A program made the translations under genes and the position numbers. Below are positions 28,733 to 54,265 of a stretch of DNA of 64,000 nucleotides, piece after piece. Location of the stretch: assembly GCA_001792115.1 (NCBI GenBank), contig MGFX01000001.1:122694-186693 (forward strand), given 5' to 3'. Numbering within the stretch: the stretch's first letter is position 1; each line of letters starts with the position of its first letter. The notes under the pieces were generated by a model. The model was not told where the DNA came from and did not search any database. It was given only the letters and a program-made list of their open reading frames with translations. Origin of the DNA: Candidatus Woesebacteria bacterium RBG_16_42_24 (GTDB taxonomy: Bacteria > Patescibacteriota > Microgenomatia > UBA8517).

Positions 28733-28841
28733 AATTTCCAATTTCCAGTTTCCAGTTTCCAATTAGTTCGAAGATCTCGAAATTTGAATTTATTAATTTG
28801 ATAATTATTTGGTATTTGGAATTTGGTGATTGGAAATTTCA
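28733..28841. repeat. heptamer-iteron palindromic element (TTTCCAA/TTTCCAG x4 ... AATTTGATAATTATTTGG ... TTTGGAA/TTGGAAA)
   Basis: Inverted arms of phased 7-nt TTCCARN / NYTGGAA repeats around AATTATCAAA-like core; family also at 32729-33228, 34124-34210, 53249-53356, 54173-54265, and a TCAAA-type variant at 29612-29728. Confidence 0.7.
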
Positions 28842-29546
28842 TTAGCGCACTCTTCCTTCCAACTTTTCCTGCTCTTCTTCAATTCTTAAATCCTGAAGGA
28901 TCTTTGCCACCCTATCCGGATTGGGAACCGCCGCAAACTCGAAATTTGGAACCTCGCTGGCTGTTTGAATTTCGACGTCGCCATAATTAAAAAAGGTCCT
29001 GGCAACTCCTCCCATTTTGTAAGTTACGTCCTGGATTTTATCAATATTGGCATCCGATACTTCCTTATATATCAGATTGTAAAAGTCTATGTCTACTATT
29101 CTCTCGTCTGTGACGATATAGACATTAAAGTACCAGGAAAGGAAATTTTCCAAGATATAAGCCGTCGTTACCAAATACCAGCCGAGGATGGCTATGAATT
29201 GGAAATTGGAAGGCAAAAAGTCAAGAATTGGGAATGCTACCAAGAAGAGTGGGGCAAGGACTAAAACTAGGGTAATAGCTATCCAGCGCAGATTTGTGAT
29301 TGGGTGTTTCCGCAAGAAAAGGACTATTTTTTCTTGTCTTTCTCTTATTTCAAAATCGACGTTGTCGGGAAAATAGTCGTAAGAAGAAAGTGGATTGTGG
29401 GTATGTCCCGGGATGTGTTCTCGGGCGGCTGGTTTTTCAACCTTTTTTATGTCCTCTTCAATTTTCGTATGGTATTTTTCCGGCTCGGAGGCTGCTCTTG
29501 GGGCTTCTTTCACTCTATGTTTTTCGCCTACAAAAATATCGGACAT
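28842..29546 (-). CDS. membrane protein with bacterial PH (bPH_2 / YdbT-like) domain
   Basis: 234 aa; two TM helices followed by ...ERIVDIDFYNLIYKEVSDANIDKIQDVTYKMGGVARTFFNYGDVEIQTAS typical bPH_2. Confidence 0.5.
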   Translation of the reverse strand: MSDIFVGEKHRVKEAPRAASEPEKYHTKIEEDIKKVEKPAAREHIPGHTHNPLSSYDYFPDNVDFEIRERQEKIVLFLRKHPITNLRWIAITLVLVLAPLFLVAFPILDFLPSNFQFIAILGWYLVTTAYILENFLSWYFNVYIVTDERIVDIDFYNLIYKEVSDANIDKIQDVTYKMGGVARTFFNYGDVEIQTASEVPNFEFAAVPNPDRVAKILQDLRIEEEQEKLEGRVR

Positions 29547-29611
29547 TTTGCCCGATTATAACGCGCCCAGCGCGATATATCAAAATTCAGATTTTGCTAT
29601 AGCACGAAAAT

Positions 29612-29728
29612 AAAGTCAAAACTCAAAAGTCAAATGTCAAAGTTTAAACTTTAAAACTAAAAAGTTTGAGTCAACAACTTTTGAATTTTTAATTACAATT
29701 TTGAATTTTGAGTTCTAAATTTTAAGTT
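29612..29728. repeat. heptamer-iteron palindromic element, TCAAA-type variant
   Basis: GTCAAAA CTCAAAA GTCAAAT GTCAAAG ... TTAATTACAATTTTGA ATTTTGA GTTCTAA ATTTTAA. Confidence 0.6.
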
Positions 29729-29730
29729 GA

Positions 29731-31485
29731 TTACAGCTTCTCTATATTAAAAAGCGTGCTCTTGAGACCAATGTAGCCTGGGGCGCGAAGGTTAAAGGCG
29801 CGTTTTAACTCCTCGCCACTCACTGAAATACTTCCTTTATTGGTGCCGAAGGTAACCGATAGGGTGGAACCATTAGTTGAATAAATTACTGAAATTGAAG
29901 AAGCACTATTGTATCCTCCAATTCCCGCAAGTTCGCTTTTGGAGTAGGGGTTTCCGCCCCAACAAGCAGTATCTATGGGAGAAACCCTCGAAGCATCTCC
30001 CCCTCCTTGGTAGAGTACATGCCAAGCATTTAGAATGTCCGCCATCTCTTCCGAGGTTAGCCAAGGGTGGGAACGACCGCAGGTTGCACCTGACCTGGCT
30101 TTATACCAACCCTTATAAAACCAAGGCGAGGCCGAAACTTTCTCGTAAGCTGTACCCGGCCAATCGCCGGATGCGTCTTTTATTCCGCTCCAACCCCATT
30201 GGGAAATGGTAAATCCTCCGGAGGTTGAGGCATAGTAAGTCGTTGCAAAACTTCCCCCCCTCATCATCACCCAACCGCGAGTGGCTTGAACTGCTTCTCT
30301 CCACTTGCCGCTTTTTAACTGTGGCTTATACACCTGACAACTCTCGGTCGGACAAATTGTTCCCGACCCTCCATTTGTAACTGCCAAGGCATAAGAGCGT
30401 GCCGCGACTGCCTGGGCTTTCAAAGCCTCAAATCCGCCCGAGTTTCCCCAAGACTCTGGAACTTCGTAAATGCCTAAAAGGTAATTGTCTTCAAAGGGAA
30501 TGCTTCCATAACCCGAGACATTTATAGTTGCCGGTGAGGGATAATCTTTCCTAAGCTCTCCTCCTTGATAGTATGCAGAAAGAATCGTCTCCGCAGACTG
30601 CCCCGACTTACTCCTTCCATAGGCTCCGTACTGACTCATACCGGTTCTATGTGGAGCGCCAAATGAGAAAGCGGCGAATGCGGGTCGAAAGCCCGGGTCG
30701 CAGAAATTGGAAGAGCCGGGGGCACCGGAGCAGGGTTCTAAAGTTGCCGGCGTATCCCCAACAGAAGTTGAAAATCCTCCTGCCTTGAGTGCCAAGAGCT
30801 CATTTTGGCGTGAAGTTAGAGAGCTTAGATAGGATTCTGTTTTCGCGACTTCCCCTGCCAGAAAGTCCGCCTGTTTATCAACTTTTGCCTGGAGCGCGGA
30901 AAGGGCTGTTTTATTTTTTTCTAAAGATTCTTTGTCGGATTTCAGGTTTCCAAGATCCTGGGCATAAGCCTCCATTGTGCGTCTATCCTCGTCGGCCGCT
31001 TTTTGGCGAAAGTTAATCTCCCGAAATGCTTCCGATGCGTCAGTTGAGGAAAGAAAGGGCATAAGGGGATCATAAAGACGAATAAACTTATAATGATTTG
31101 CGGCTTTTTCCTCAAAAATTTCTTTTGTATACGCCAAGTCCTCTTCTCTTTGGGCGATATCCGACTCAACCCTGGTTAGTTGGGCGGAGACTCCTGTAAT
31201 TTGCTTGGAAATTGAGGCTAGCTGGGCTTTTAGCTTAGCCAGTTCCTGTTTATTTGTTTCTTGGGCCGGAGTTAGGGCGTCGAGCTGCTCCTGAATTTTT
31301 GCAAGGCAATAGTCAATGTCGCCAGGGCCGGGCGAGTCGCAGTTGGGCTCGGCGGAAATAGTGAATAGTGAATGGTAATTAGGGATTGGTCGGGGCAGGA
31401 TGGCCAATGCAAGAGAAATGCTTCCGAAAAATAAAATTATTAACTTTGTACTATGCACTATGCGCTTTGCTCTATACTTTCTCAC
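29731..31485 (-). CDS. secreted coiled-coil protein with C-terminal SpoIID/LytB domain (cell-wall amidase enhancer-like)
   Basis: 584 aa; signal peptide, ~200-aa coiled coil, then HRTGMSQYGA...AQAVAARSYALA SpoIID/LytB signature. Confidence 0.6.
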   Translation of the reverse strand: MRKYRAKRIVHSTKLIILFFGSISLALAILPRPIPNYHSLFTISAEPNCDSPGPGDIDYCLAKIQEQLDALTPAQETNKQELAKLKAQLASISKQITGVSAQLTRVESDIAQREEDLAYTKEIFEEKAANHYKFIRLYDPLMPFLSSTDASEAFREINFRQKAADEDRRTMEAYAQDLGNLKSDKESLEKNKTALSALQAKVDKQADFLAGEVAKTESYLSSLTSRQNELLALKAGGFSTSVGDTPATLEPCSGAPGSSNFCDPGFRPAFAAFSFGAPHRTGMSQYGAYGRSKSGQSAETILSAYYQGGELRKDYPSPATINVSGYGSIPFEDNYLLGIYEVPESWGNSGGFEALKAQAVAARSYALAVTNGGSGTICPTESCQVYKPQLKSGKWREAVQATRGWVMMRGGSFATTYYASTSGGFTISQWGWSGIKDASGDWPGTAYEKVSASPWFYKGWYKARSGATCGRSHPWLTSEEMADILNAWHVLYQGGGDASRVSPIDTACWGGNPYSKSELAGIGGYNSASSISVIYSTNGSTLSVTFGTNKGSISVSGEELKRAFNLRAPGYIGLKSTLFNIEKL

Positions 31486-31571
31486 CGCCTTTCATTATAC
31501 CAACTCCCATCCTCGCGTCGCCGCAAGGCGCGTTTTACTCCTCTTCATTTTTGTCCTAAAATGATTGTTAG

Positions 31572-32381
31572 ATGAAAAAATTATTTTTGATAAGCGCATT
31601 TCTTTTCCTCGTTTCTTTAGCTCTGCCAAGCAAAGTCTTTGCCGACTGCGCCTTGGCCGACTGGAACGAAAATACAAGGAATATGCAGGTTTGTGTCGGA
31701 GAATTCAGTTCCGTGGCCGAACTTAGAGATACCACTGTTGAGTTTCATTGCACGGGTAATTCAAACATACCATATGGCTCTTTCTGTCGAGACATTGTAA
31801 ACCCCACATTTTCCTTTGCTAGTACAACCGACCTCCCCGATAGCGAGATCAGGCAAGATCCAAACGGACTTTACTATGCCTGCATAACCGGGCAAGGACT
31901 CAATAGAGCCATCGGCTCATTAGATGTAATCTTTTGGAATGGCGGCTCTGAATACTGTCGAATAAATAATTTATATACCCGGCCACCCGACTGGAACCCT
32001 CTTACAGAAGGCGCTCCTTGGCAAAGGGGGACCAACAATCCTGCCCCAGTTCCAATTACGGTAGATATTGAGTTAATGTGTACGACGGGCGGGGATAGGG
32101 GAATTAATACCGCCATAGGCTGTATTCCGATTTATGATTCCACTGCCTTATTTGGTTTTATTCTTAAGTGGGCGATTGGAATCGGTGGGGGAATTGCATT
32201 CATCCTAATTCTTGTCGCCGGATTTCAAATAATAACCTCGCAAGGAGATCCGCAAAGACTCCAGGCCGGAAAAGAACTCTTAACGTCGGCCATTGTTGGG
32301 CTACTTCTTATAATTTTTTCGGTATTCATTCTGGAGGTAATAGGGGTGGACATATTGGGAATCCCGGGATTTAATCAATAA
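31572..32381 (+). CDS. secreted Cys-rich protein with C-terminal VirB2/TrbC-like pilin module
   Basis: 269 aa; signal peptide; C-terminal ~70 aa (AFILILVAGFQIITSQGDPQRLQAGKELLTSAIVGLLLIIFSVFILEVIG) matches the motif shared by the downstream small pilin-like genes. Confidence 0.5.
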   Translation: MKKLFLISAFLFLVSLALPSKVFADCALADWNENTRNMQVCVGEFSSVAELRDTTVEFHCTGNSNIPYGSFCRDIVNPTFSFASTTDLPDSEIRQDPNGLYYACITGQGLNRAIGSLDVIFWNGGSEYCRINNLYTRPPDWNPLTEGAPWQRGTNNPAPVPITVDIELMCTTGGDRGINTAIGCIPIYDSTALFGFILKWAIGIGGGIAFILILVAGFQIITSQGDPQRLQAGKELLTSAIVGLLLIIFSVFILEVIGVDILGIPGFNQ

Positions 32382-32382
32382 A

Positions 32383-32718: not shown

Positions 32719-32728
32719 AGCCTTAATA

Positions 32729-33228
32729 CAATTTCCAGTTTCCAGATTCCAATTTCCAGTTAATTTCTAATTATCAAAATTTCGAAATTAATAATTTTTC
32801 CTTTCTAAAGTAAGTATTGAAGTTGTCAAAATCTTTATAATTTCCCCACCCTCATTTATTAGCGTCTTACACTTTATAACAACTTCCTCATAAGAGGGAT
32901 TGGCCTCCAGGATTAATCGAAGCCAATAGATAGATTCTCTGGTCTCTTTCCTGCAGACCCTTAATCTATGAACAAAGTCTTTTCTTCCAAGTGCTTCGAG
33001 CGCTTCAATATAATTTGACCCGGGTGAAGCGGAAGATCGTATAAGCTGTTTTCCATATTCTCTGTTGTATTCGGATTTTGGAAGTTCGAATATTATTTTT
33101 TGACAATTTTGTGCAAAAACTACGAGTCTTTCATAAAAGGCTTCTGAATCGAATTTGGTTGCCATGGGGCGAATTCTATCATTTTATTTGGAAACTGGAA
33201 ATTGGAGATTGGAAATTATCAATTATAG
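32729..33228. mobile_element. split heptamer-iteron palindrome enclosing a four-helix-bundle gene
   Basis: Left arm CAATTTCCAGTTTCCAGATTCCAATTTCCAG..AATTATCAAAAT (32729-32800); right arm TTTGGAAACTGGAAATTGGAGATTGGAAATTATCAATTAT (33183-33228); the 4HB gene lies between the arms. Confidence 0.5.
32788..33165 (-). CDS. four-helix-bundle protein (TIGR02436 family)
   Basis: 125 aa; family-typical ...Y.RL..FAQNC..II.ELPKSEY..GKQLIRSSAS.GSNYIEA.... Confidence 0.7.
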   Translation of the reverse strand: MATKFDSEAFYERLVVFAQNCQKIIFELPKSEYNREYGKQLIRSSASPGSNYIEALEALGRKDFVHRLRVCRKETRESIYWLRLILEANPSYEEVVIKCKTLINEGGEIIKILTTSILTLERKNY

Positions 33229-34032: not shown

Positions 34033-34123
34033 AGAAGACTTCGTCTTCACGAAATTCCAAATTCCCTGCCTCGCCGGCAGGCGGGCAATTACCCCGCCTA
34101 CGCCAAGGCTTCGGCGGGCAGGC

Positions 34124-34210
34124 AATCTCCAATTAAATTCCAAAATCCTAATTATTAATTTGATAATTCTAGATTATCTGGAAACTGGAATCTGGAAATT
34201 GGAAATTAGT
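34124..34210. repeat. heptamer-iteron palindromic element upstream of pilin gene
   Basis: TCTCCAATTAAATTCCAAAATCCTAATTATTAATTTGATAATTCTAGATTATCTGGAAACTGGAATCTGGAAATTGGAAATT. Confidence 0.65.
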
Positions 34211-34233
34211 ATATGTTTTGTTACACTTAAGTC

Positions 34234-36440: not shown

Positions 36441-38840
36441 ATGATTCAACTGCCCAAATTACCAAGATTTAGGAATTATGATTTACGATTTAAGATAGCA
36501 CCTATCCAGGGACTTACACTCATTACATTTTCCCTTCTACTAGCGTCTTCACTTTTTCTCTCGATAAAACTTGCCAGCGCCCAAGTCCCCCCACCAACTG
36601 TACCTTGCAATCAAACGAATGAAGACAGGGGTTATCCCGACGAATTCCATTCACTCCGTCCTTACCAGGCAAGTCCCTGTAGCGACGAAACAGAGCCCTC
36701 TGCTCTTTTTTGCGGGAATGACCTGACTTTGCAAGACAGCTTTACGGTAAGCAGAAGCCAAGCATCTCAGTGCGACCCCATAAGTCCGGATACGGAAGAG
36801 TGTATTTTTAAAATAACCCGAAATTTGGATATTGCGGTTGACGTTTCGGGTGCAGAGCTACCCATAATGGGAAGGACTGAGGATGACGTAATCAATTCCC
36901 AAAATCAAAACGAAACCAGAAACGATGCTGAAAAAGTCAACGAGTATGTAAGTTGGTATTTAAATGGTACAAATATTGCCGCCGAATATGGAGATTTAGA
37001 CGCAGGCAATGAAGACGATATCTCAAAACTCGTGAACTTCTCGGGTCCAATAAAAAAACTTCTTCCCGAACGAATAAAAAGAGATGAAATTAGAGAGACC
37101 ATAGAGGCAAGACGAGCAGACAGGCACGACCAGGTTGTTGGATGTATAAGAAGAGAAGGATTTCTCGGAATTTATGTGGGAATCGTCGAATGTTACTCGG
37201 GCGGTGGGGGAACGGAAATTCGCCTTTCCGACCTGGCTGATCATATGCCGCCACAGGAGGAAGATCCACGCTTTGCCAATTATCAAGAGTTCCTCTGGGC
37301 ATATTTTAGGTGGCGGGGCTACGAATGTCCGAATATCCCAATTGTCAATATTACCGTCTGCTTCGAGGCGCCCTGGCTGTTTAATTACTGGGCCGACCTT
37401 TATTACCTAACGCCCCTTTCTTCCACCGAAGACAGGCTGGGACAAATTCAAGTCGTCAATCCTTACGTGCAACCCGTGACTCCCGGAATGTTTATTTTTG
37501 TGAATAGTTTAGTTACAACTCCAGCAAAACTTTTTTTTGCCCACATGGAAGAATCGCAGGAGCTGGCCGATACTCTTCAAGATACTTTTGTTCCCAAGGG
37601 GAACCCCAAAAGCGGTCCGGTCTCAGGAGTAAGCCCGCCCGAATATTGCGACTTAACCGAAATTAGAACCAACCCGGGTGACGACCTTTTTGCAGGAGAG
37701 ATTGGGGTGGACCTAACTTATACTGCCGACTTTTCCTGCACCTTTGATATATTCGACCCGCCGGACCCGGTTGATAGATACCGATGCAGCGAACTCTATG
37801 GGGGTGTCTGTGTATCGGATGATTACGATTGCGACGAAATGGACGGACAACTCGATTGTCCTTCGGGGTGGAGATGCGGTAGACCCGAGGGTAGCTGTAA
37901 CGCCCAAAGACCTAACCCGTCTTGTCCGGCAACTGCGCAGGTGGTTCTGAATACAGTGACCAAAACTCCATTGGTAGACGATATTTGGTCTAGGCTTGTT
38001 GCCGGAGTTTCTGGGGTGTTCAAAAGAATTTTCCCCAAAGTAGCGCCGGGGGCACCCGTTGAGGGAATTCTTGACATTCCGGCGGCGACCGGAGTCACCT
38101 ATAGCGCTGAAATTAATAACGTCCCTGTCCCGGTTGCCGCCGGGAATCCGGGAAACCAGCGTGGCCCAGCCGCGGAGCTTTATTTTCCCCATATAGGAGG
38201 AATTGAGCAATACTTCTTACAATGCATCCAAACTGCCCTTAGGCCGCAGGGTTTTGGGGAAGTTTGCCCCTCGGGGGAACCTCCCGAAGTGGTTACAACC
38301 TGTCCGTCCGTACCCGACTCAGCAATCGACAGTAAATGGCTGGGTGTACCTAAACAAAATTACTTAAGGATGGCTAATCAGAGAATGGCTGCCTGTCCCG
38401 GACCTGAAAATAACCTTGCGGAAGAATGCTACAACTACGTAGTAAGTGAATCGCTAGATGAAGGAGTTAATCCTGCCTTTTCCCTGACAATGTGGTTTAA
38501 CGAAAGTGGTGCAAGCAATTACTGCACATCTCCTACTTTTGATTTTGGTATAAAAAATGGTGCACCTGCTGAAAACATCGTTGAACAACTCGACTTATTT
38601 TTGGTCCAACCATTCAGAATAACTGCTGCCTGCAGGAGCGACCCCGCCTGGATAGAACCAATGGAAGCGTTCTTGAGCGTTTTCCACGGAAACTACTACT
38701 GCGACACTTCGTATGATGACGGCGGCTATTATCAAAACACACTTAATAACAGCTGGATCCCGGTAACAGACGGGTGGGGCGGCTGCGGCGGAGGAACTTC
38801 TTTTGGCATCGACTGGCCGACGGATAGTAGCTGTCCATAA
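36441..38840 (+). CDS. large secreted Cys-rich surface protein (candidate pilus-associated adhesin)
   Basis: 799 aa; N-terminal TM/signal, >40 Cys in CxxC/CxxxxC clusters, no catalytic motif; position directly after pilin array. Confidence 0.4.
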   Translation: MIQLPKLPRFRNYDLRFKIAPIQGLTLITFSLLLASSLFLSIKLASAQVPPPTVPCNQTNEDRGYPDEFHSLRPYQASPCSDETEPSALFCGNDLTLQDSFTVSRSQASQCDPISPDTEECIFKITRNLDIAVDVSGAELPIMGRTEDDVINSQNQNETRNDAEKVNEYVSWYLNGTNIAAEYGDLDAGNEDDISKLVNFSGPIKKLLPERIKRDEIRETIEARRADRHDQVVGCIRREGFLGIYVGIVECYSGGGGTEIRLSDLADHMPPQEEDPRFANYQEFLWAYFRWRGYECPNIPIVNITVCFEAPWLFNYWADLYYLTPLSSTEDRLGQIQVVNPYVQPVTPGMFIFVNSLVTTPAKLFFAHMEESQELADTLQDTFVPKGNPKSGPVSGVSPPEYCDLTEIRTNPGDDLFAGEIGVDLTYTADFSCTFDIFDPPDPVDRYRCSELYGGVCVSDDYDCDEMDGQLDCPSGWRCGRPEGSCNAQRPNPSCPATAQVVLNTVTKTPLVDDIWSRLVAGVSGVFKRIFPKVAPGAPVEGILDIPAATGVTYSAEINNVPVPVAAGNPGNQRGPAAELYFPHIGGIEQYFLQCIQTALRPQGFGEVCPSGEPPEVVTTCPSVPDSAIDSKWLGVPKQNYLRMANQRMAACPGPENNLAEECYNYVVSESLDEGVNPAFSLTMWFNESGASNYCTSPTFDFGIKNGAPAENIVEQLDLFLVQPFRITAACRSDPAWIEPMEAFLSVFHGNYYCDTSYDDGGYYQNTLNNSWIPVTDGWGGCGGGTSFGIDWPTDSSCP

Positions 38841-38942
38841 AGAGAAGATATTACGATATTAAGATACAAAGATATAAAGTGCTTTTAACACTCAAGTGAT
38901 GTTTTTTATTTTAGAGGTCTGTAGTATTATGAAATAATCACC

Positions 38943-43559: not shown

Positions 43560-43624
43560 ATTTTCCCATTTTTAGGCTTTTTTTGCAAAAAATGACTTGT
43601 GAAAAAGCATAGTACTTGAATTGA

Positions 43625-43700
43625 AGTGTTCACGGGGTAAGCTAGAAACTAGTGCATAGTACATAGTTTATAGGCGATAGTACAAAGTACATAGTCCAAA
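43625..43700. repeat. AGTGCATAGTACATAG-family palindromic element, left arm
   Basis: CTAGTGCATAGTACATAGTTTATAGGCGATAGTACAAAGTACATAGTCC; inverted partner at 44100-44145 (TCTATGCACTTTGTTCTTTGCACTACGTACTA) on the other side of the 4HB gene; same family at 31375-31470 and 53133-53210. Confidence 0.6.
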
Positions 43701-43714
43701 GAAAAAATAAACCA

Positions 43715-44098
43715 ATGGCGGAACCTGTCCAAAAAACTAGCTATAAAAACTTAATAGTTTATCAGAAGGCAAAAGCTCTAACGACAGATGTCCTTAGTTA
43801 TTTCTCAGAACATAAGCTACCTTACACAAAAGAATTCTTAATAAGACAATTATTCCGATCCGTTAGTTCAGTTGGGGCAAATATTGCTGAAGGCTACGGA
43901 AGGCATTATCAAGGAAGCCTAAGGCAATTCTTCGCCATCGCACGAGGTTCGAGTTTTGAGTCAGATTACTGGCTAGAGATTCTTCAGGAAATGGGAGAAT
44001 TTGACGGGAAAATAATATCAGATTTTATTAACAGAAACACAGAGCTTTCAAAAATGTTGACAAGTTTGATGAAAAAGACAGACGTTTCGCGTCAATAG
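43715..44098 (+). CDS. four-helix-bundle protein (TIGR02436 family)
   Basis: 127 aa; YKNLIVYQKAKALT..V......LPYTKEFLIRQLFRSVSSVGANIAEGYGR. Confidence 0.7.
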   Translation: MAEPVQKTSYKNLIVYQKAKALTTDVLSYFSEHKLPYTKEFLIRQLFRSVSSVGANIAEGYGRHYQGSLRQFFAIARGSSFESDYWLEILQEMGEFDGKIISDFINRNTELSKMLTSLMKKTDVSRQ

Positions 44099-44149
44099 TC
44101 TATGCACTTTGTTCTTTGCACTACGTACTAATTACTATTTACTAAATTA

Positions 44150-45286
44150 ATGGAACAACAACACCCGATACCGCAACAAATCTCCTCTTACCAATTCCGA
44201 CTGGTGGGGGATATGACCCTCAAGCAATTCCTGCAAGTCGGCGGAGGCATGTTAATTGCCCTAATTATTTACTCAACTCCAATCATTGGACTTATTAAGT
44301 GGCCTCTTGTAATTATTTCTGCCTTAACAGGCGCGGCCCTTGCGTTCCTGCCTTTCCAAGAGAGGCCCCTAGAGAAATGGATTTTTGCTTTCCTTCGCTC
44401 AATCTATTCCCCAACCCTTTTTTATTGGAAACGTCTGCCCTCCGAAACCGCTTTTTTCCAAGAACAACCCACAACCCTACCCACCCCCTCGGTAGTTACC
44501 CCGCCGCCTCCCCCCGGGTATCCTGAACTGGCTATAGAAATCACTCCTCCTGTCGCCCCTGCTGCCCCTCTTCCAGCCGGAAGTCCTCAAGGTTTGACTG
44601 CCAAGCCACCCCTTATGGTGCCAACAATTGCCCCTCTGGGTTTTCCTTCATCGGGGCCGGTGTCCCAGGCCCCGAAAGCTCCAGTGGAGCTTGAACCGGG
44701 ATTAACAATCTTTCCTAACCTTGAGGAAGCAGAAAAAACTTTCTTGAGTAAAATCACGGGGCTATTTAGTCTTGCCCCAACCTTGCCTACCAATGAAGGT
44801 CCCGTTAGCGAGGAAGAGAAAAAAGGGCGCCTGAATGTCGTTCCATCAAAGCCAATCAAAATTGAGCCCATCCATGAGGAAAAAGAGGTCCCCGAAGAAC
44901 CCGCACTAGAACCTGTTTATGTTTCTGTTGCACCAACCTTAACTCCCACAAGGAAGTTAGCCGAGGAATTTGCGCAATTTAGTGAGGACGCCGCTCCTCC
45001 CTTTCCTCCCAGTCTTCCAAATGTGATTGTAGGTCAAGTTATGGACTCAAATAAAAAAATCGTAGAGGGAGCAATACTTGAAATTAAAGATTCTGCGGGA
45101 AGGCCCGTAAGAGCACTCAAAAGCAATAAACTAGGACATTTTATGATCGTCACTCCTCTAACTAACGGCCGCTATACAATAGAAATCGAAAAAAATGGGT
45201 TTATCTTTGATACTGTAAGTTTTGACGCGCTGGGAAACGTCATTCCGCCGATAGCGATCAAGGCCAAGGAGATAACCAATGCCTAA
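44150..45286 (+). CDS. PrgI-family (VirB3-like) T4SS membrane protein with Pro-rich linker and C-terminal CarboxypepD_reg-like beta-sandwich domain
   Basis: N-terminal ~100 aa: QFRLVGDMTLKQFLQVGGGMLIALIIY...LPFQERPLEKWIFAFLRSIYSPTLFYWKR matches the PrgI family pattern; followed by PPPPGYPELA... linker and GQVMDSNKKIVEGAILEIKDSAGRPV...GRYTIEIEKNGF domain; overlaps start of VirB4 gene. Confidence 0.55.
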   Translation: MEQQHPIPQQISSYQFRLVGDMTLKQFLQVGGGMLIALIIYSTPIIGLIKWPLVIISALTGAALAFLPFQERPLEKWIFAFLRSIYSPTLFYWKRLPSETAFFQEQPTTLPTPSVVTPPPPPGYPELAIEITPPVAPAAPLPAGSPQGLTAKPPLMVPTIAPLGFPSSGPVSQAPKAPVELEPGLTIFPNLEEAEKTFLSKITGLFSLAPTLPTNEGPVSEEEKKGRLNVVPSKPIKIEPIHEEKEVPEEPALEPVYVSVAPTLTPTRKLAEEFAQFSEDAAPPFPPSLPNVIVGQVMDSNKKIVEGAILEIKDSAGRPVRALKSNKLGHFMIVTPLTNGRYTIEIEKNGFIFDTVSFDALGNVIPPIAIKAKEITNA

Positions 45287-48023
45287 ACTATCTTTTCCTA
45301 CTCTCCCTATTGCGAACCCTTTCAAGGTACCTGATACTCCGATTATTGCCACCTCCCAGGACTTACTACCAATAGCAGACATTGACCAAGATGTTGTGGT
45401 TTACAAAGAAGGTGGCGCGGCATTGGTGGTTGAGACTACTTCTTTAAATTTTGGACTTCTTTCGGAGAAGGAGCAGTATGCCGTAATTGCGGCATATGCG
45501 GCACTCCTTAACTCCCTTTCTTTCCCAATTCAAATTCTGATCCGCTCCCAGAGAAAAGATATTAGCCACTATATGGAATATCTCGCTCAGGCAGCCAGGA
45601 AGGGTATGGATCCCAAACTTGCCAAGATAATGGAGGGGTATAAACTCTTCATCGTTGACGCCGTAAAAAAGAAAAATGTTCTGGGTAAAAAATTCTATAT
45701 AATAATCCCCTTTAGTCCTCTTGAGTTGGGTTTGGCTAAATCCATAAGCTCCCTTACCAGGTCCTCCGGCCCCCTTCCTTATCCCAAAGCATATGTAATT
45801 AAGAAGGCGAAAGACATCCTTTATCCCAGGCGCGACCACTTAATCAGACAGGGGGGGAGGCTGGGAATTAAACTAAGGCAACTTAGCACAAAGGAGCTTG
45901 TTGAGCTCTACTACAACATATTTAATCCCCCACCACCGGCTACTAAAAAGATGGAGGAATTTGCCCCGCGCGAGAGCGGTGGTTTGCCAGATTTTCTAAA
46001 AGCCGGCGCGGGTCTTCTTGGAGGCCATAAACCCCCTACCCAATCCCCACCCGAAGCACCAGTCCCGAGCGGACTTGGAGGATCACCGATCCCGAGTGGA
46101 AATGGAGGACCAACGGCCCCGAGCGGACTTGTCCTGAGTAAAATCGAAGGAGTCGAGGGACCAACGGCCCCGAGCAGAGTCGAGGGGCAGATTGGCCCAT
46201 GGGGTGAAAAGCCGAAGGTATTTTCTCCAACAATTTCTCTTGCCCAGAAAAATATGGGCCTTTTGGATGTCATTGCTCCTCAATCAATTGAGATTGATTT
46301 TGACTTTATTAAATTAAACGGCGTCTATATCCGCACTCTCTATACAGCCATTAGACGCAGGTACGCTTCCCCCGGGTGGATTGAGCAAATTATCAATTTT
46401 GATAGTTCTTTGGACATTTCATTTCATATCTATCCAGTCGAGGGTAAAAGCGTACTTGACGACCTCAGACGCAAAATTGCCGAAATGGAGGCGGAAATGG
46501 AAACGGACATTGAAAGAGGCAAAATTGTCAATCCGGTTACTCAGGCTCAGCTGGAGGATGCATTGGCTCTCCAGGAACAATTGGTTAAGGGAATTGAGCG
46601 GTTTTTTGACTTCTCCTTCTATATCAGTATTCCGGCGTCGGACTTAGAGGAGCTTAACCATCTAACTTCCCAAGTAAAATCGACCCTTCGTTCGCTACAG
46701 ATCGAGGGAATTCCGGGCGCCCTTGATTGTGCCGACGCTTTTATCTCAGCCGGGCCATTCGGGTTGGACAAGATGGCCGTAACCAGAAACATGGATACAA
46801 CCAGCCTGGCAACGACTTTCCCGCTAACGAGTGCGGAGTTATCTTCCGACAAAGGAGTACTTTACGGAATAAATTCACAAAACGAGTCTTTCATTATTTT
46901 TGATAGATTCTCCTTGGAAAACTCCAACATGACAATATTTGCCACATCAGGAGCCGGAAAAAGTTATTTTGTAAAGCTCGAGGCCTTAAGAACCTTAATG
47001 CTAGGAGCTGAGATTATCGTCATTGACCCGGAAAGTGAGTATAAGACTTTGGCCGAGGCCGTCGGAGGAGAATTTATTTCCTTCTCCTTCTCCTCCCCTT
47101 CAAAAATTAACCCATTTGATTTGTCAGCTGTATATGAAGAGGGTGAGAACTCGTTGGGACTTAAGATTCTGTCCCTCCACTCTCTTTTTAAGGTCATTAT
47201 GGGGGCACTCACCCCAACCCAGGAGGCGCTTTTGGATCGGGCCCTAATCATGGCCTATCGCGGAAAAGGAATTACCCAAGACCCAGCCACCCAAAAGAAA
47301 GAGCCCCCCCTAATGGAGGACCTTTATAAATCACTCGTGGGGATGGAAACGCCGGATGCGATGGACTTGGCCGCCAGAATCGAAAAGTTTGTAAAGGGAA
47401 GCTTTGTGGGAATATTTGACCAGCAGACAAATATCGATATTAAAAACTCCTTTACTGTGTTCTCCGTCAAGGACCTTGAGGAAAGCCTTCGGCCTATTGC
47501 TATGTTTATTATTCTTGATTTTATTTGGACCAGGGTTAAAAGGGACCTTAAAAAGAGGGTTTTAATAGTGGATGAGGCCTGGCACATGATGCGCTACCCC
47601 GACTCTGCCCAATTTTTGTGGTCTGTGGTTAAAAGGGCTAGAAAATACTTTCTAGGTTTGACCACCATTACGCAGGACGTGGAGGATTTTTTGGCCCAGG
47701 ATATCGGAAAAGCCATTGTTACAAACTCCGCCCTCCGCGTACTTCTCAAACAGTCCCCGGCCGCAATTGACAATATCGGCCAAGTATTTTACTTGTCTGA
47801 GGGAGAAAAACAGTTGCTTCTTGCCGCAAATATCGGAGAGGGGATCTTTTTCGCCGGTGCTCACCACGCTCCCATTAGGGTTGTAGCCTCGCCCGAAGAG
47901 CACGGCCTAATAACCACCAAGCCGCAAGAGCTTTTGCAAAAAGAGGCGGCGTCTGCCCAAGTCGCCCCTTCTGAAGCCGCATCTATCGCCCAAGCAACTG
48001 TCCAGGGGCTAGGAAACCTTTAA
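45279..48023 (+). CDS. VirB4/TrbE/PrgJ-family type IV secretion ATPase
   Basis: 914 aa; Walker A TIFATSGAGKSYFVK, Walker B VLIVDEAWHMM, CagE/TrbE/VirB4 C-terminal region; Pro/Gly-rich insertion (aa ~230-300). Confidence 0.8.
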   Translation: MPKLSFPTLPIANPFKVPDTPIIATSQDLLPIADIDQDVVVYKEGGAALVVETTSLNFGLLSEKEQYAVIAAYAALLNSLSFPIQILIRSQRKDISHYMEYLAQAARKGMDPKLAKIMEGYKLFIVDAVKKKNVLGKKFYIIIPFSPLELGLAKSISSLTRSSGPLPYPKAYVIKKAKDILYPRRDHLIRQGGRLGIKLRQLSTKELVELYYNIFNPPPPATKKMEEFAPRESGGLPDFLKAGAGLLGGHKPPTQSPPEAPVPSGLGGSPIPSGNGGPTAPSGLVLSKIEGVEGPTAPSRVEGQIGPWGEKPKVFSPTISLAQKNMGLLDVIAPQSIEIDFDFIKLNGVYIRTLYTAIRRRYASPGWIEQIINFDSSLDISFHIYPVEGKSVLDDLRRKIAEMEAEMETDIERGKIVNPVTQAQLEDALALQEQLVKGIERFFDFSFYISIPASDLEELNHLTSQVKSTLRSLQIEGIPGALDCADAFISAGPFGLDKMAVTRNMDTTSLATTFPLTSAELSSDKGVLYGINSQNESFIIFDRFSLENSNMTIFATSGAGKSYFVKLEALRTLMLGAEIIVIDPESEYKTLAEAVGGEFISFSFSSPSKINPFDLSAVYEEGENSLGLKILSLHSLFKVIMGALTPTQEALLDRALIMAYRGKGITQDPATQKKEPPLMEDLYKSLVGMETPDAMDLAARIEKFVKGSFVGIFDQQTNIDIKNSFTVFSVKDLEESLRPIAMFIILDFIWTRVKRDLKKRVLIVDEAWHMMRYPDSAQFLWSVVKRARKYFLGLTTITQDVEDFLAQDIGKAIVTNSALRVLLKQSPAAIDNIGQVFYLSEGEKQLLLAANIGEGIFFAGAHHAPIRVVASPEEHGLITTKPQELLQKEAASAQVAPSEAASIAQATVQGLGNL

Positions 48024-49836: not shown

Positions 49837-49855
49837 ATAAGATTGTAGGAGGTAA

Positions 49856-50428: not shown

Positions 50429-50432
50429 ATCT

Positions 50433-51545
50433 CTAAACCTGAACCCTTACGGGCATTATAAGATGAAGAAAATTGACGTCGGAGGGATCGGTAAAAACTC
50501 CGGGAGCATTCTCGTTGGAAAGCCCTATGTTAACATCACCACCGCTTACGGCGTGCAAGAATTCCTCTAAAAATCTATAGTTAAAAGAAATTTCAAACCC
50601 GCCCGTCGGTAACCCTTCAACTTTTGCCTCAACCTGACTTTCTTGCCTCCCCGCCATCTGGCTTTCAGCGGCAATTACTACTCCGTCCTTTTTAAGTGAA
50701 AACCTAACTATGTTGGCTGAATCCCTGGCAAAAACCGAGGCAAGCTTTACGGCTCTTAAAAGATCATCTTTATCAAGTGATACCTTGATATTTGTCTCTT
50801 TTGGAATTATTTTTTCGAACTCCGGAAAATCACCTTCTAAAATCCGCGTTGATAAAATCGTATCCCCTACTCCAAAAACCACCTGATTATCTTCTTCTCT
50901 GAAAGATAGTTTTAAATCTTGCTCCTCAATCCCTATTCTTGCAAGCTCCGACAAGGCGCTTTTAGGAAGTATTACTTTTTTTTCTTGATGAAAGCCTGCG
51001 TCTTGTAATTTTTTTTGAGAAAGCCTAAAACCATCAGTCGCCACAAGTGAGAGCCCCCCTTTTTTAAATAGAAAGAGAACTCCTGTCAAAATCGGTCGGG
51101 TTTCGTCAGTTGAGGCGGCAAAGACAACTTGAGAAAGAGCCTGTAAAAGCGCTTCTTTCGGGAAGGAATATGAAGTCTTGCCCAAAGATTGAGGGACTTC
51201 GGGAAAGTCTACTGCATTCATTCCGGAAACACTCGAGTTAGTGTTGGATGATGAAATTTCCAAAATTTCTTTTTCAGAATTGAGCATTATTGCACCGGGG
51301 GTAAAATTTACTACAAGTTCGCTAATTACTCGCGACGGGATAGTAATTTCTCCTTCGCTAGATACTTTTGCTCCAATAGAAATGGCCACAGAAACTTCGA
51401 GATTAGTCGAGCAGACTAGGAGTTTGTTTTTCTTGGCCGAGAGGTAGATATTTCCGAGAACAGGCAGTTGAGCCCGAGAACTTGCAAAGCGTGAAGCGGT
51501 TGAAAGTGCTCTTGAAAAATTTTCCTGAAGAACTTCTAATTTCAT
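50433..51545 (-). CDS. dnaN: DNA polymerase III beta sliding clamp
   Basis: 370 aa; three-domain clamp pattern, MKLEVLQENFSRAL N-terminus; downstream of dnaA. Confidence 0.85.
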   Translation of the reverse strand: MKLEVLQENFSRALSTASRFASSRAQLPVLGNIYLSAKKNKLLVCSTNLEVSVAISIGAKVSSEGEITIPSRVISELVVNFTPGAIMLNSEKEILEISSSNTNSSVSGMNAVDFPEVPQSLGKTSYSFPKEALLQALSQVVFAASTDETRPILTGVLFLFKKGGLSLVATDGFRLSQKKLQDAGFHQEKKVILPKSALSELARIGIEEQDLKLSFREEDNQVVFGVGDTILSTRILEGDFPEFEKIIPKETNIKVSLDKDDLLRAVKLASVFARDSANIVRFSLKKDGVVIAAESQMAGRQESQVEAKVEGLPTGGFEISFNYRFLEEFLHAVSGGDVNIGLSNENAPGVFTDPSDVNFLHLIMPVRVQV

Positions 51546-51744
51546 AAAAATAAGCTTTACCCTTTTATCATATATTAACTAGTAGTTCTAGTAGTAGGGG
51601 CGGTGGATATGTTGAAAACTAGCCCCCTTTTGGAACAGTCTTCGGTAGAAATTCGTGTGTACATTGAGCTAGTCGAAATGTTGATATATTTGTGGATAAA
51701 AGTAAGGCCAGTGTTGATAAGTTGATAAGCGGGCGGAGACTTCC
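51546..51744. promoter_or_regulatory. putative oriC segment (dnaA-dnaN intergenic) with DnaA boxes
   Basis: AT-rich 199 bp; perfect DnaA box TGTGGATAA (51691-51699, = TTATCCACA rc), near-boxes GGTGGATAT, GTTGATAAGTTGATAAG. Confidence 0.55.
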
Positions 51745-53130
51745 TCAAAGGCTATTTTTTATCCCCAATAAATCCTCACGAATTTGCACATCCTCGCTGG
51801 CCAAATGTGTGATTTTTTCAACAGCGTGCATAACGGTTGTGTGATCACGCCCTCCGACCAGGCGTCCAACCTCGGTGAGAGGGAGCCCGAGCTCTCTTCT
51901 TAGAAGATACATAAGTATTTGTCGTGGTCTGGCGATGGGGCGGACCCGCGACTCACCCAGCAAATATTTTTTACCCACAGAGAAGTGTTTAGCAACCGCC
52001 GAAATGACATCCAAGGGTTTTGCCCTTATTTTCAGGGCTATCGACTCCGCCCCTTTACCAATTAGGGAATTTACAAGATCTTCGGAAATTTCTGTTTTTC
52101 TAAGGCGCGCTTGACTTGCGAGTTTGACCAAAAACCCTTCAATAGGCCTGGCAGCGTCAATGTTTGCTGCGATAACTTGTACCAGATCCATGGGAAGCTC
52201 AATGCCCCTCTCTTTAGATTTAATTTGGGTAATAGCACAGCGCAGTTCAAAGTCGGGAGGCGCAATGTCTACAATTAGACCTGCCTCAAAGCGGCTTTTT
52301 AAGCGTTCCTCGAGTTTTGAAATATCTGACGGGGGCTTATCCGAAGTCATAATTACTTGTCCACCGGCGTTAGTTAAGGCGTTAAAAGTGTGGAAGAATT
52401 CTTCTTGGACCGCGTCTTTCCCTGCGATGAATTGAATGTCGTCTATAAGAAGCGCTTTAAGTCTTCTATATTTGTCGCGAAACGCTGTCGTTGTTTTGTT
52501 TCTGATTCCTTCGACGATGCCATTTGTAAATTCTTCCCCAGAAACAAAGAGAATTTTTGCCAAAGGATTCTCTGCAAGGAGGCAGTATCCGATTGCGAGC
52601 ATTAAATGTGTTTTGCCGACCCCTACTCCACCCCAAATAAAAAGCGGGTTATAAGCACTTCCAGGTGTATTTGAAACGGCTTCAGCCGCCGCGTGGGCCA
52701 TTTGATTAGATGAGGAGACGGCGAAATTCTCAAATGTAAAACCTGGCCTGATATGTGTTCGCAAGAAGGCCTCATTAATTTCCTCTTTGTCGTCTTTCTG
52801 AAAAAGTGGGGTGTCGAGGGTGTGCTCAAAAGTCTTTTTATCAGGGTTTTGCCTAACTACAAACGTTAAGTCGCAGGAGGCTTCTAAGGATTTGACAAGT
52901 GAATCTTGGAGCATTCCAAAATAACGACTTTCAATTGTTGTTTTTATAAAGGGGGAAGCGCAGCCGACCTCTATGACAAACCTAGTTCCCTGTTTCTCGA
53001 TTTTTGCAAGGAATGTCTGCGAGAACCACGTTGAGAAAATTGCGGGGGAAACTGAAACTTTAATACTTTCGAGTGTATCGCGCCAGAGTTTTTTAGTATC
53101 AAGCATGATAGTAGATAGTGCAGAGTACAT
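51745..53130 (-). CDS. dnaA: chromosomal replication initiator DnaA
   Basis: 461 aa; AAA+ Walker A GGVGVGKTHL, Walker B LLIDDIQF, C-terminal DNA-binding helix-turn-helix. Confidence 0.9.
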   Translation of the reverse strand: MYSALSTIMLDTKKLWRDTLESIKVSVSPAIFSTWFSQTFLAKIEKQGTRFVIEVGCASPFIKTTIESRYFGMLQDSLVKSLEASCDLTFVVRQNPDKKTFEHTLDTPLFQKDDKEEINEAFLRTHIRPGFTFENFAVSSSNQMAHAAAEAVSNTPGSAYNPLFIWGGVGVGKTHLMLAIGYCLLAENPLAKILFVSGEEFTNGIVEGIRNKTTTAFRDKYRRLKALLIDDIQFIAGKDAVQEEFFHTFNALTNAGGQVIMTSDKPPSDISKLEERLKSRFEAGLIVDIAPPDFELRCAITQIKSKERGIELPMDLVQVIAANIDAARPIEGFLVKLASQARLRKTEISEDLVNSLIGKGAESIALKIRAKPLDVISAVAKHFSVGKKYLLGESRVRPIARPRQILMYLLRRELGLPLTEVGRLVGGRDHTTVMHAVEKITHLASEDVQIREDLLGIKNSL

Positions 53131-53132
53131 AG

Positions 53133-53210
53133 TGCATAGAAGGATTTTTAGTAGGACAGGGGTTAATGTTTTTTACTTTGCACTATGCACTAATGACTAT
53201 GTACTATTTA
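53133..53210. repeat. AGTGCATAGTACATAG-family palindrome in dnaA-rpmH intergenic region
   Basis: GTAGATAGTGCAGAGTACATAGTGCATAG ... CTTTGCACTATGCACTAATGACTATGTACTAT inverted arms; followed by perfect DnaA box TTATCCACA at 53216-53224. Confidence 0.6.
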
Positions 53211-53248
53211 TTGAGTTATCCACAATTAGTCAACCCCCAAAATACACG

Positions 53249-53356
53249 AAATTCCAAATTCTAATTTCAAAATTCCAGTTAATTATCAAAATTCAAATTT
53301 GACAATTCGAAACTTTGCAACAAATTTGGAAACTGGAAACTGGAAATTGGAAACTA
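53249..53356. repeat. heptamer-iteron palindromic element upstream of rpmH
   Basis: AATTCCAAATTCTAATTTCAAAATTCCAGTTAATTATCAAAATTCAAATTTGACAATTCGAAACTTTGCAACAAATTTGGAAACTGGAAACTGGAAATTGGAAAC. Confidence 0.7.
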
Positions 53357-53368
53357 TATAATATCAAA

Positions 53369-53509
53369 GTGCCTAAAAGAACTTTTCAACCAAATAAGGC
53401 AAAGAGAGCCAAAACCCATGGTTTTAGAAATAGAATGGCCTCTCGTTCTGGCCGCGAAGTACTTGCTAGAAGAAGACAAAGGGGTCGGAAACTTCTTACC
53501 CCAAGCTGA
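53369..53509 (+). CDS. rpmH: 50S ribosomal protein L34
   Basis: GTG start gives (M)[45 protein letters not shown]; ORF-track N-terminal extension ([14 protein letters not shown]) is read-through of the heptamer repeat from a TTG. Confidence 0.8.
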
Positions 53510-53618
53510 AATTCTCCGTGGGTTTAAAACCCACGGTTTTTCACCTAAGTGAGAATTACATACGGGTTCAATTCATCCGTAAACTAAAGTTTACGGTTTT
53601 CTTGAATCCTTTAATAAA

Positions 53619-53948
53619 ATGCTTGCCAGAAAGTTCATCCTCACAGGGGAGACAGAATTCGCTAGAGTAAAGCAAGAAGGCAGAGTTATTCAGTCGGAAA
53701 GTTTTGGCACATCTTTTATTAAAAAAGAGGGTTTGTCGAAATTTGGATTTATAGTTTCGAATAAAATTAGTAATTCTGCGGTTGCCCGTAATAGAATAAA
53801 AAGGGCACTGAAGGAAGCGGTGAGACAAACGATTGATGAAAAGGGGAGGGGGCTTGCGGTGGTTTTCTTTGCAAAACCACAAGCATTGAGGCGATCAAAC
53901 GAAGAAATAGCCAATGAAGTAAAAAGGGTTCTAGCCAAAATTATCTAA
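53619..53948 (+). CDS. rnpA: ribonuclease P protein component
   Basis: 109 aa; basic, RNR motif region ([19 protein letters not shown]); rpmH-rnpA synteny. Confidence 0.8.
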
Positions 53949-53949
53949 A

Positions 53950-54174
53950 ATGGAAAAATCAGCAACATCTTTAATTTCTTTTTACAAAAAGGTTATCTCC
54001 CCTATTTTGGTGATTAATTTTGGCCACGCCTGTAGATATACACCAACCTGTAGTGAGTATTCCAAAGAAGCAATTAAGAGGTTCGGACTGGTCAAAGGGA
54101 TAACCCTTTCTTTAAAGAGAATTTCAAGGTGCAACCCATTTGGCAGATTTGGATACGACCCAGTACCTAGTTAA
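53950..54174 (+). CDS. yidD: membrane protein insertion efficiency factor YidD
   Basis: 74 aa; [10 protein letters not shown].....CR..PTCSEY...AI...G..KG..L...RI.RC.P canonical YidD. Confidence 0.8.
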
Positions 54175-54265
54175 AAATTCCAAATGCCAAATTCCAATTT
54201 CCAAATAATTATCAAATTAGCAAATTCGAATTTAACTGGAAACTGGAGACTGGAAACTGGAAATT
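54173..54265. repeat. heptamer-iteron palindromic element upstream of yidC
   Basis: TTCCAAATGCCAAATTCCAATTTCCAAATAATTATCAAATTAGCAAATTCGAATTTAACTGGAAACTGGAGACTGGAAACTGGAAATT. Confidence 0.7.

Follow-up and report, generated by a model that had tools for sequence, protein, structure and literature searches.

The closest described relatives of the elements reported here are the intervening sequences (IVSs) of bacterial 23S rRNA genes. The IVS of Coxiella burnetii is 428 nt long, carries an open reading frame (ORF) for the protein S23p and is bounded by a 28-bp terminal inverted-repeat stem that is cut by RNase III; three to four tandem GACAGAT heptamers, their number varying between strains, lie just upstream of the S23p ORF (PMC4990558). 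IVSs of the S23p type, which occur also in Leptospira and in Xanthomonas-type bacteria, are regarded as selfish and of unknown function, and S23p of Xanthomonas is a homopentameric toroid (PMC4990558). PF05635 is also the family of Avd, the accessory protein of diversity-generating retroelements (DGRs) (PMC10053308), and in the Avd pentamer an RNA stem-loop is bound by all five protomers, and bases flipped out of it occupy the crevices that separate neighbouring protomers (bioRxiv 10.1101/2023.10.23.563531). Here, we analyse a 64-kb stretch of a Candidatus Woesebacteria genome (the window), in which about 20 short-repeat arrays, most prominently a family of TTCCAAA/TTTGGAA heptad palindromes, accompany three genes for intervening-sequence proteins (IVPs) of the same family.

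Proteins annotated as '23S rRNA IVS proteins' are among the commonest uncharacterised small proteins of bacteria, and to our knowledge the only published context clue for the family is the rRNA intervening sequence itself, with the heptamers mentioned in passing. Several other systems combine short repeats with a dedicated protein. In REPIN-RAYT systems a single-copy gene lies between inverted repetitive extragenic palindromes (REPs), the same repeat is dispersed without the gene in intergenic regions, and the families are cognate to their genes; RAYT, the REP-associated protein, is an IS200/IS605-type HUH transposase with known DNA-cleaving activity. The ribbon-helix-helix repressor omega of pSM19035 uses 7-bp heptad operators, direct or inverted, near promoters, while TRAP and HutP are ring-shaped RNA-binding proteins that sit on evenly spaced short repeats, in the case of HutP on UAG repeats at 7 nt. 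Cyanobacteria, finally, contain short tandemly repeated repetitive (STRR) sequences, tandem heptamers without a known function that lie between genes and have been described in Nostoc, Anabaena and Calothrix.

A search of all ORFs in the window revealed three PF05635 genes, each of them placed between inverted short-repeat arrays and each with its own repeat unit: TTCCARN for IVP-A, CATAGTN for IVP-B and a 9-mer for IVP-C. They exemplify a type of cassette, widespread but as yet practically undescribed, in which an IVP gene lies between inverted arrays of about five units, usually of 7 nt and rarely of 8-9 nt. We estimate a probability of roughly 0.6 that these arrays and genes represent rRNA-IVS-like cassettes together with their gene-less derivatives, in which co-occurrence, geometry and homology suggest that the arrays probably serve as the docking register of a pentameric IVP.

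The initial annotation of the window had listed six heptad elements of one common design, and these are indeed present, at coordinates correct to a few nt. With up to one mismatch allowed, TTCCARNTTCCA has 29 matches in the window compared to 4.35 ± 2.1 in dinucleotide shuffles, a number reached by none of 100 shuffles. A scan of the window by period yielded eight arrays with at least 18 of 21 self-matches at period 7 and none at periods 5, 6 or 8-12, and Tandem Repeats Finder also reports the heptad arrays independently. The common design is borne out for the TTCCARN/NYTGGAA elements, all of which are strictly intergenic, while two of the listed items had been misassigned: 32729-32800 and 33183-33228 are not separate elements but the two arms of one 490-bp cassette enclosing a gene, and the 'TCAAA-type variant' at 29612-29728 belongs to a distinct heptad family, AAAAGTN/TTGACTT. 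The CATAGTN/ACTATGN and the 9-nt families had been missed. Of the 21 short-repeat arrays of the window, 19 are intergenic though 84% of it is coding. The suspected spurious ORF extensions at 28762, 33078 and 53315, which arise by translation of the arrays, were confirmed. The features of the TTCCARN family (family A) are as follows.

32729-33218, minus strand: complete cassette A (element 2), made of left arm, short 3' flank, IVP-A gene and right arm, with inverted arrays of four heptads
32729-32761, no strand: cassette A arm, (TTTCCAG/ATTCCAA) x4, with four intact TTCCA cores
32762-32787, no strand: 3' flank of IVP-A with the TAATTATCAAA 'core', aligned to the ORF-less elements, to which the core is common
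32788-33165, minus strand: IVP-A gene, 125 aa, four-helix bundle, PF05635/TIGR02436 by profile searches
33173-33201, minus strand: putative promoter-like site TTTCCA-17-TG-TAGAAT, 7 nt before the IVP-A ATG, with its -35 inside a heptad
33186-33218, no strand: cassette A arm, (TTGGAAA/CTGGAAA/TTGGAGA) x4, 67 nt upstream of uppS
28733-28840, no strand: ORF-less element 1, flanked by the stop codon of the bPH_2 gene (28842) and the start of the DUF5657 gene (28726)
34051-34209, no strand: ORF-less element 3, between uppS and the T4SS_pilin gene
53249-53358, no strand: ORF-less element 4, in the dnaA-rpmH spacer, with four intact cores in the gene-side arm (53322-53358) and a hairpin z of -5.0
54174-54266, no strand: ORF-less element 5, between yidD and yidC, ending 6 nt before the yidC ATG

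Elements 1, 3, 4 and 5 (n = 4, 93-159 bp) align end to end with a cassette A from which the ORF has been deleted, and the alignment includes a shared core, AATTATCAAA, which in the cassette makes up the short stretch from the IVP-A stop codon to the arm. Judged by this alignment, they are therefore ORF-less derivatives of cassette A, the master copy of the family, from which they have retained the two arms and the 3' flank of IVP-A. Four cores are intact in the gene-side arm of elements 1, 3 and 4, and one or two in the distal arm; in element 1 the arms lie at 28733-28764 (four cores) and 28806-28840 (two), with hairpin z scores of -3.8 and -4.7, and in element 3 the gene-side arm is 34176-34209. 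Element 5 has three intact cores in either arm and provides the stop codon of yidD. The distal arm of element 3 consists of two parts, 34051-34065, a remnant that had not been listed, and 34124-34150, split by a 57-nt GC-rich hairpin (34066-34122, -35 kcal/mol, z -3). A repeated family with the insert motif GGCGGGCAGG was sought in the window and none was found. GC-rich inserts, different ones, also occur within heptad arms of two loci of the candidate phyla radiation (CPR), at about 6395-6441 of locus L057 and about 660-730 of L082.

The arrangement of cassette A and its derivatives resembles that of REPIN-RAYT systems in that a gene is bracketed by an inverted repeat, gene-less copies are dispersed and the repeat is specific to the gene. 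It differs in that the IVP, a small helical bundle, lacks motifs of nucleases or recombinases and in that the arms are heptad arrays and not a single REP hairpin. A REPIN-RAYT system was rejected, as the flanked genes belong to PF05635 only and none encodes an IS200/IS605-type (Y1 HUH) transposase.

The likeness to the S23p-type IVSs goes further. In the three complete cassettes a PF05635 ORF lies inside the element (it is missing from ORF-less elements 1, 3, 4 and 5), the inverted repeats are able to form a long stem, and heptamers stand beside the ORF, the stem of about 28 bp in Coxiella equalling four heptads. The Coxiella element is also transcribed in sense with its host RNA, like most cassettes, and by this analogy RNase III cleavage may be predicted for the cassettes of the window. 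The differences are that the window elements lie between protein-coding genes and not in helix 25 or 45 of 23S rRNA, that several cassettes with different units share one genome and are accompanied by dispersed ORF-less miniatures, and that cassette B is fixed at the head of an operon resembling those of type IV secretion systems (T4SSs), with a conserved promoter-like block of its own. Thus, the element class is closest to the S23p-type rRNA IVSs, minus their defining location and plus ORF-less dispersal and multiple cognate families.

All three proteins exceed the curated cutoffs of both family models. IVP-A scores 42.8 bits (6.9e-11) against PF05635, with a cutoff of 33.8, and 66 bits (3.1e-18) against TIGR02436, with a cutoff of 24; the respective values are 85.1 bits (4.6e-24) and 85.6 bits for IVP-B, and 110.5 bits (5.8e-32) and 101.2 bits for IVP-C. 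A profile of the A clade matches the crystal entry PDB 2RLD, which has five chains; the IVPs share a homologous four-helix-bundle fold with the pentamer Avd and are putatively homopentameric as well. Avd moreover offers the case of an imperfect stem next to its own gene that is bound by all five protomers. The Avd site is a single 11-bp stem-loop, in contrast to the two tandem-repeat arrays found here, and the IVP genes differ from avd in their company and in scoring below the Avd cutoff: no reverse transcriptase, template repeat or variable repeat adjoins any of the three genes, and identification as a DGR Avd was rejected at 29.9 bits against the NF033474 cutoff of 80 for IVP-C and no match for IVP-A and IVP-B. 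The neighbours of the IVP genes are pilin, uppS, PrgI-like, TraG-like and tpiA genes; PADLOC gave no defence-system match, and no A-clade IVP was found in viral contigs, hence there is no evidence of a phage vector.

In order to assess how general the association is, we assembled 80 A-clade loci from a species-representative genome collection and scored the 250-nt flanks of the gene. The loci were retrieved with an A-clade alignment (A2), a mixed alignment of three clades (A1) being too diverged. Since a strict array caller under-calls degenerate arrays (it finds both arms in 22/78 loci), period scoring and arm alignment were used. The loci span Patescibacteria, Bacteroidota, Planctomycetota, Desulfobacterota-type bacteria, Nitrospirota, Chloroflexota, Calditrichota and others. 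The best period was 7 in 130 of 158 flanks (82%) compared to 274 of 2134 background windows (13%), and strong arrays (score ≥15) were present in 91/158 flanks versus 60/2134 background windows. In most loci the upstream flank and the reverse-complemented downstream flank matched each other better than shuffles did. The common anatomy comprises 4-6 N-C-A-A-A-T/W-W units (TTCCAAA, TCGAAAT, CTAAATT), 8-40 nt, the gene from ATG to stop, a short spacer and the complementary units. In 62 of 71 loci the IVP gene and the genes on either side of it point in the same direction, at median gaps of 77 and 101 nt; as hardly more than the arms fits into these gaps, transcription of an operon normally runs through the cassette, as it does through an IVS within rRNA.

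The association extends beyond the A clade, and the remaining array families of the window are listed here.

43597-44150, plus strand: complete cassette B, with promoter-like block, (CATAGTN)n at 43640-43700, IVP-B at 43715-44098 and (ACTATGN)n at 44098-44150; the PrgI-like gene is next
43597-43606, 43616-43621 and 43638-43643, plus strand: promoter-like block of cassette B, TTGTGAAAAA, TTGAAT and TAAGCT, conserved among relatives
4752-5225, minus strand: complete cassette C, with 9-nt arrays of about five units each (4752-4795 and 5170-5225) around IVP-C (4798-5163)
53105-53210, no strand: ORF-less family-B palindrome ATAGTGC.../...GCACTAT, abutting the likely dnaA ATG at 53106 (minus), z -4.7 and -6.6
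31443-31475, minus strand: lone family-B array of about five heptads, overlapping the start region of the SpoIID-like gene and having no inverted partner
29612-29723, no strand: fourth-family ORF-less palindrome AAAGTCA.../...TTTTGAA, weakly folded, z -0.65 and -2.0
4056-4094, no strand: fourth-family lone array NACTTTT x5, between rpiB and tpiA

No cognate IVP gene for the fourth family (AAAAGTN/TTGACTT) was found within the window. In all 11 of 11 relatives of IVP-B (L168-L178, 50-77% identity) the gene has CATAGTA/CAAAGTG/CAAACAA-type heptads and occupies a syntenic position directly upstream of PrgI-like and TraC/TraG-like genes; in the window IVP-B heads a T4SS-like cluster with the PrgI-like gene at 44150-45286 and the TraG-like gene at 45279-48023. 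Five further IVP genes, met by chance within the loci, are likewise accompanied by arrays particular to each, with a period of 7 or 8. Of six genes of the family examined in cyanobacterial plasmids, five are bracketed by arrays of (CAGGAGT)n, (GGAGATA)n or (GGCAGAR)n and their complements; these are genes of Nostoc, Picosynechococcus and Stanieria, and the one without arrays is from Calothrix (L182). The three plasmid units, CAGGAGT, GGCAGAR and GGAGATA, are presumably not those of STRR1-3. One of the bracketed genes, with (GGAGATA)n/(TATCTCC)n arms, lies between cas10/cmr2 and cmr3 of a type III-B operon (L183, Picosynechococcus sp. PCC 7003 plasmid NZ_CP016476.1, 126115-127387), a placement which may explain why '23S rRNA IVP' is listed among CRISPR-linked proteins (PMC10910872).

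Within a protein clade the unit is conserved across phyla at 45-60% protein identity, TTCCAAA-type in A and CATAGTA-type in B, and it differs between clades. Heptad arrays of unusual length, about 14 copies, are AAGAATW in the Saccharibacteria locus L025 (8231-8333) and AAATAAC downstream of the IVP gene in L012, and L025 contains at least six different heptad families within 12 kb. We found no published description of a general link between PF05635 and heptad arrays, or of ORF-less derivatives outside rRNA, in a literature in which subscription journals were sparsely covered, so that a prior description is possible.

The arms themselves have a regular geometry. When the two arms are aligned without gaps, the median length is 35 nt, which equals five heptads (interquartile range 31-41), and mismatches are preferentially spaced by 1, 7 and 14 nt; pairing of the arms therefore gives helices of about 5 bp with interruptions of 1-2 nt, about five times over. 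Arms also match the partner of their own locus better than arms of other loci (36.4 vs 28.0 in the A clade, p = 1.5e-9; p = 0.026 in the B clade).

From these observations the following course of events may be proposed. The cassette is normally transcribed as part of its host operon, and the two arms can pair into a stem of about 35 bp broken every 7 nt, an anatomy as in the RNase III-cut IVS of Coxiella 23S rRNA. A homopentamer would then dock on the array with about one unit per protomer, a correspondence proposed because Avd grips its imperfect RNA stem with all five protomers, and its binding may govern how the cassette and adjacent genes are processed or expressed. The ORF-less copies would be non-autonomous relics that still present the array and are targets of IVP-A in trans, and some of them may have been co-opted, for example as the -35 of the rpmH promoter. 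The suggestion of the initial annotation that a single protein recognises the heptads remains plausible, with the four-helix-bundle protein encoded within element 2 as the candidate; the conserved promoter or operator role attributed to the elements is not supported, as described below.

Several points weigh against this proposal. Both the binding of the protein to the arrays, proposed from co-occurrence, geometry and homology, and processing at these elements are putative. IVP-A is antisense to its neighbours, unlike most cassettes, four of the five family-A elements are antisense to host transcription, and the polarity of family-B arrays relative to the downstream genes is inconsistent. Stray arrays share the unit of the resident IVP in 23% of cases compared to 13% for the units of other loci, which is only a modest enrichment, explained by the many loci in which several families coexist, every one with an IVP of its own. 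For the complete cassettes mobility is not obvious, cassette B being syntenically fixed and the Flavobacterium copies sharing a downstream gene, and no target-site duplication is readable, the nearest empty sites being too diverged. On the IVP sense strand the arm mismatches show no bias for G.U over A.C (107 vs 115, p = 0.64) and two thirds of them are transversions, therefore strand-specific selection for RNA pairing is not visible. Locus L168 retains the upstream array and has lost the downstream arm, and lone arrays occur in the window as well, so the stem is dispensable in some copies. The arrays may act as RNA, single-stranded DNA or double-stranded DNA: embedding in operons and the rRNA precedent favour RNA, and the absent wobble bias together with the operator-like position of the B-clade arrays keeps DNA in play.

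The alternative that survives best, although we consider it unlikely, is that the elements act as structural RNA hairpins only, REP-like or IVS-like RNase III sites or mRNA stabilisers, in which the heptads are not read by any protein and the IVP gene is a passenger. Long interrupted hairpins are predicted on either strand for most window elements (z -3 to -6.6, only the AAAAGTN element being weakly folded), cleavage of the Coxiella IVS heptad stem by RNase III has been demonstrated (PMC4990558), and both the sense orientation of cassettes within operons and the better pairing of own arms are what such hairpins would produce. However, selection for structure alone would permit the unit to drift by compensatory changes, whereas the units are conserved within clades across phyla. 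The 7-nt tandem build and the count of about five units are not explained by a simple stem; the stems are imperfect, with interruptions phased at 7 nt and no G.U enrichment, and one-armed L168 and the lone arrays persist. Unit sequence and phasing are conserved more than strict pairing.

Somewhat less probable still is an operator or promoter regulon, in which the heptads would be double-stranded DNA operators of one dedicated transcription factor for the rpmH, yidC, uppS, pilin and neighbouring genes, much as omega uses its heptads on pSM19035. This is close to the view of the initial annotation, which took the elements for promoter or operator modules of core operons. It correctly placed them near gene starts, as each of these intergenic elements ends 6-24 nt from the downstream start codon (67 nt in the case of uppS). 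The nearly perfect gene-side arms of elements 1, 3 and 4 (four cores against one or two, the two arms of element 5 being equal with three each) would suit an operator, as would the missing G.U bias. Heptads also supply -35-like hexamers correctly spaced from a -10: TGGAAA-17-TATAAT (53334-53362) lies 6 nt before the rpmH GTG at 53369, and an extended -10 promoter-like site precedes the IVP-A ATG. In about 9-10 of 12 B-clade loci the first heptad is closely preceded by a conserved block consisting of TTGTGAAAAA, TTGAAt, 16/17 nt and TAAcCT; this block resembles a promoter, from which the array would be transcribed as the 5' leader, and the array following directly upon it holds a classical operator position. 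Like omega, TRAP and HutP, the IVP would be an oligomer reading short units of fixed spacing near promoters or in leaders, a putative similarity; the folds are unrelated, and here the arrays form inverted pairs around the gene of the putative binder.

Nevertheless, a conserved regulon is contradicted by the absence of the elements upstream of the same genes in related genomes. We compared the yidC locus with orthologous loci of 80 related Woesebacteria (57-84% identity, 403 kb in total). In about 70 of them yidD abuts or overlaps yidC with no element between the two (e.g. ATGA in L081); as this is the normal arrangement, element 5 is therefore an insertion. Likewise, the short distances to start codons arise because the elements were inserted into spacers originally 0-25 nt long. 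The genes downstream have no functional relation to one another, and promoter-like sites are not enriched (15 vs 10.8 ± 3.3, and 3 vs 3.5 ± 1.9). An operator would leave unexplained why arrays bracket a gene, why the ORF-less copies retain its 3' flank, and how sense-oriented cassettes sit in operons with no room for a promoter. Thus, the TTCCAAA/TTTGGAA palindromes are lineage-specific insertions and not conserved regulatory sites of core operons, and a conserved promoter or operator role for them is not supported. Intrinsic terminators were rejected too, as no terminator-like site was found at any element, the stems being AT-rich and interrupted.

The same comparison bears on a further, improbable alternative, namely that the elements are ordinary miniature inverted-repeat transposable elements (MITEs), whose arms are terminal inverted repeats for a transposase encoded elsewhere, with the IVP gene as cargo. 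The ORF-less A copies have MITE-like traits, being small palindromes with terminal inverted repeats, present in several copies within 64 kb, located at gene junctions and polymorphic for presence and absence. Among the relatives, TTCCA-type arrays are found only in L082 and L093, as an element at the yidD/yidC junction, and an unrelated AACTAAN/NTTAGTT heptad palindrome occupies this junction in L129 and L130. The 403 kb of relatives contain 15 heptad arrays and no IVP gene, compared to about 20 arrays and three IVP genes in the 64 kb of the window; in other genomes (L002, L010, L067) cognate ORF-less palindromes lie near an IVP gene. The full-length related element, however, encodes a four-helix-bundle protein and no recognised transposase, and among about 100 cassettes examined none has a linked transposase. 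The unit is tied to the IVP clade, hence the arms are linked to this protein and not to an external enzyme. Against a MITE stand also the syntenic fixation of cassette B at 50-77% identity and the lack of an identified target-site duplication. Complete cassettes can be old and positionally stable, as in the B clade and in the A-clade cassettes of Flavobacterium, which have a common downstream gene, and the ORF-less copies are lineage-specific, having been inserted in this lineage at gene junctions that were very short.

Functionless simple-sequence repeats, made by slippage in AT-rich spacers and unrelated to the neighbouring genes, can be dismissed as very improbable, since despite the AT-rich units and the copy number variation between Coxiella strains (PMC4990558) only period 7 is enriched, the TTCCA unit is present at five sites together with a common core outside the repeats, and arrays in inverted pairs are strongly linked to one gene family across phyla. 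No variation in heptad copy number was seen among 23 contigs with an identical IVP-A (7 places compared), which represent the same clone. CRISPR arrays and replication iterons or oriC were considered for the elements and rejected, as were DGR and REP/RAYT; the 'iteron-like' character proposed earlier is without support in the replication sense, since DnaA boxes lie beside the elements and not within them.

Other features of the window may be mentioned briefly. The dnaA-rpmH spacer has a perfect DnaA box, TTATCCACA (53216-53224), between its two palindromes, and the spacer downstream of dnaA (51546-51744) has another, TGTGGATAA (51691-51699), with GTTGATAAGTTGATAAG at 51713-51729; from this content the latter spacer is probably the replication origin. 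A near-consensus promoter, TTGATA-17-TATAAT (29555-29583, minus strand), lies 8 nt before the ATG of the bPH_2 gene. Promoter positions at bPH_2, rpmH and IVP-A suggest leaderless or very short-leader mRNAs, and Shine-Dalgarno-like motifs upstream of window genes are few. The lone array at 31443-31475 lies directly downstream of TGGTATAAT, a -10-like sequence, and the start of the SpoIID-like gene is disputed by gene callers, with 584 vs 575 aa in L161-L163. An ORF of 799 aa (36441-38840), for which Pfam gave no match, has arrays in direct orientation at its ends, AAGATTT x4 of period 7 (36464-36496) and AAGATATT x4 of period 8 (38845-38879), and a 27-nt tandem repeat of 2.6 copies lies inside the TraG-like ORF (46063-46131). 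At the gathering threshold Rfam gave no match at the elements; its matches in the window are a tmRNA and five tRNAs (25834-26189; 15652-15723; 21812-21895; 22983-23144; 24184-24272), with no rRNA.

A broader generalisation of the docking proposal is tentative and appears to us rather doubtful at present. In this generalisation TIGR02436/PF05635 proteins would be sequence-specific readers of short tandem repeats, a pentamer engaging about five 7-nt units, one per protomer, on repeats that it carries with itself on both sides of its gene. The units might be read in single-stranded form or in a stem broken every 7 nt. Protein and arrays together would make up an occasionally mobile, heritable and self-contained module of ribonucleoprotein (or nucleoprotein) nature, ranging from CPR bacteria to cyanobacteria and including the rRNA IVSs, and the gene-less copies would extend it into a network acting in trans over neighbouring genes.

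For annotation, the heptad arrays account for spurious ORF calls and the cassettes may account for apparently 'CRISPR-linked' IVP genes, and palindromes of this kind should be treated with caution, as lineage-specific insertions can be mistaken for conserved regulatory sites of core operons. If the proposal is true, the anonymous IVP family would gain a concrete ligand, clade-specific inverted arrays of about five heptads placed around nearly all of its genes, a count which agrees with the known pentamer and with the binding of RNA by all five protomers of Avd. It would unite rRNA IVSs, DGR Avd and the dispersed heptad palindromes of CPR bacteria, possibly also the cyanobacterial heptanucleotide repeats. 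A very large 'hypothetical' family would thereby acquire a function, the rRNA IVSs and perhaps the cyanobacterial repeats would be explained, and the role of the ancestor of Avd before its recruitment by reverse transcriptases would be revealed.

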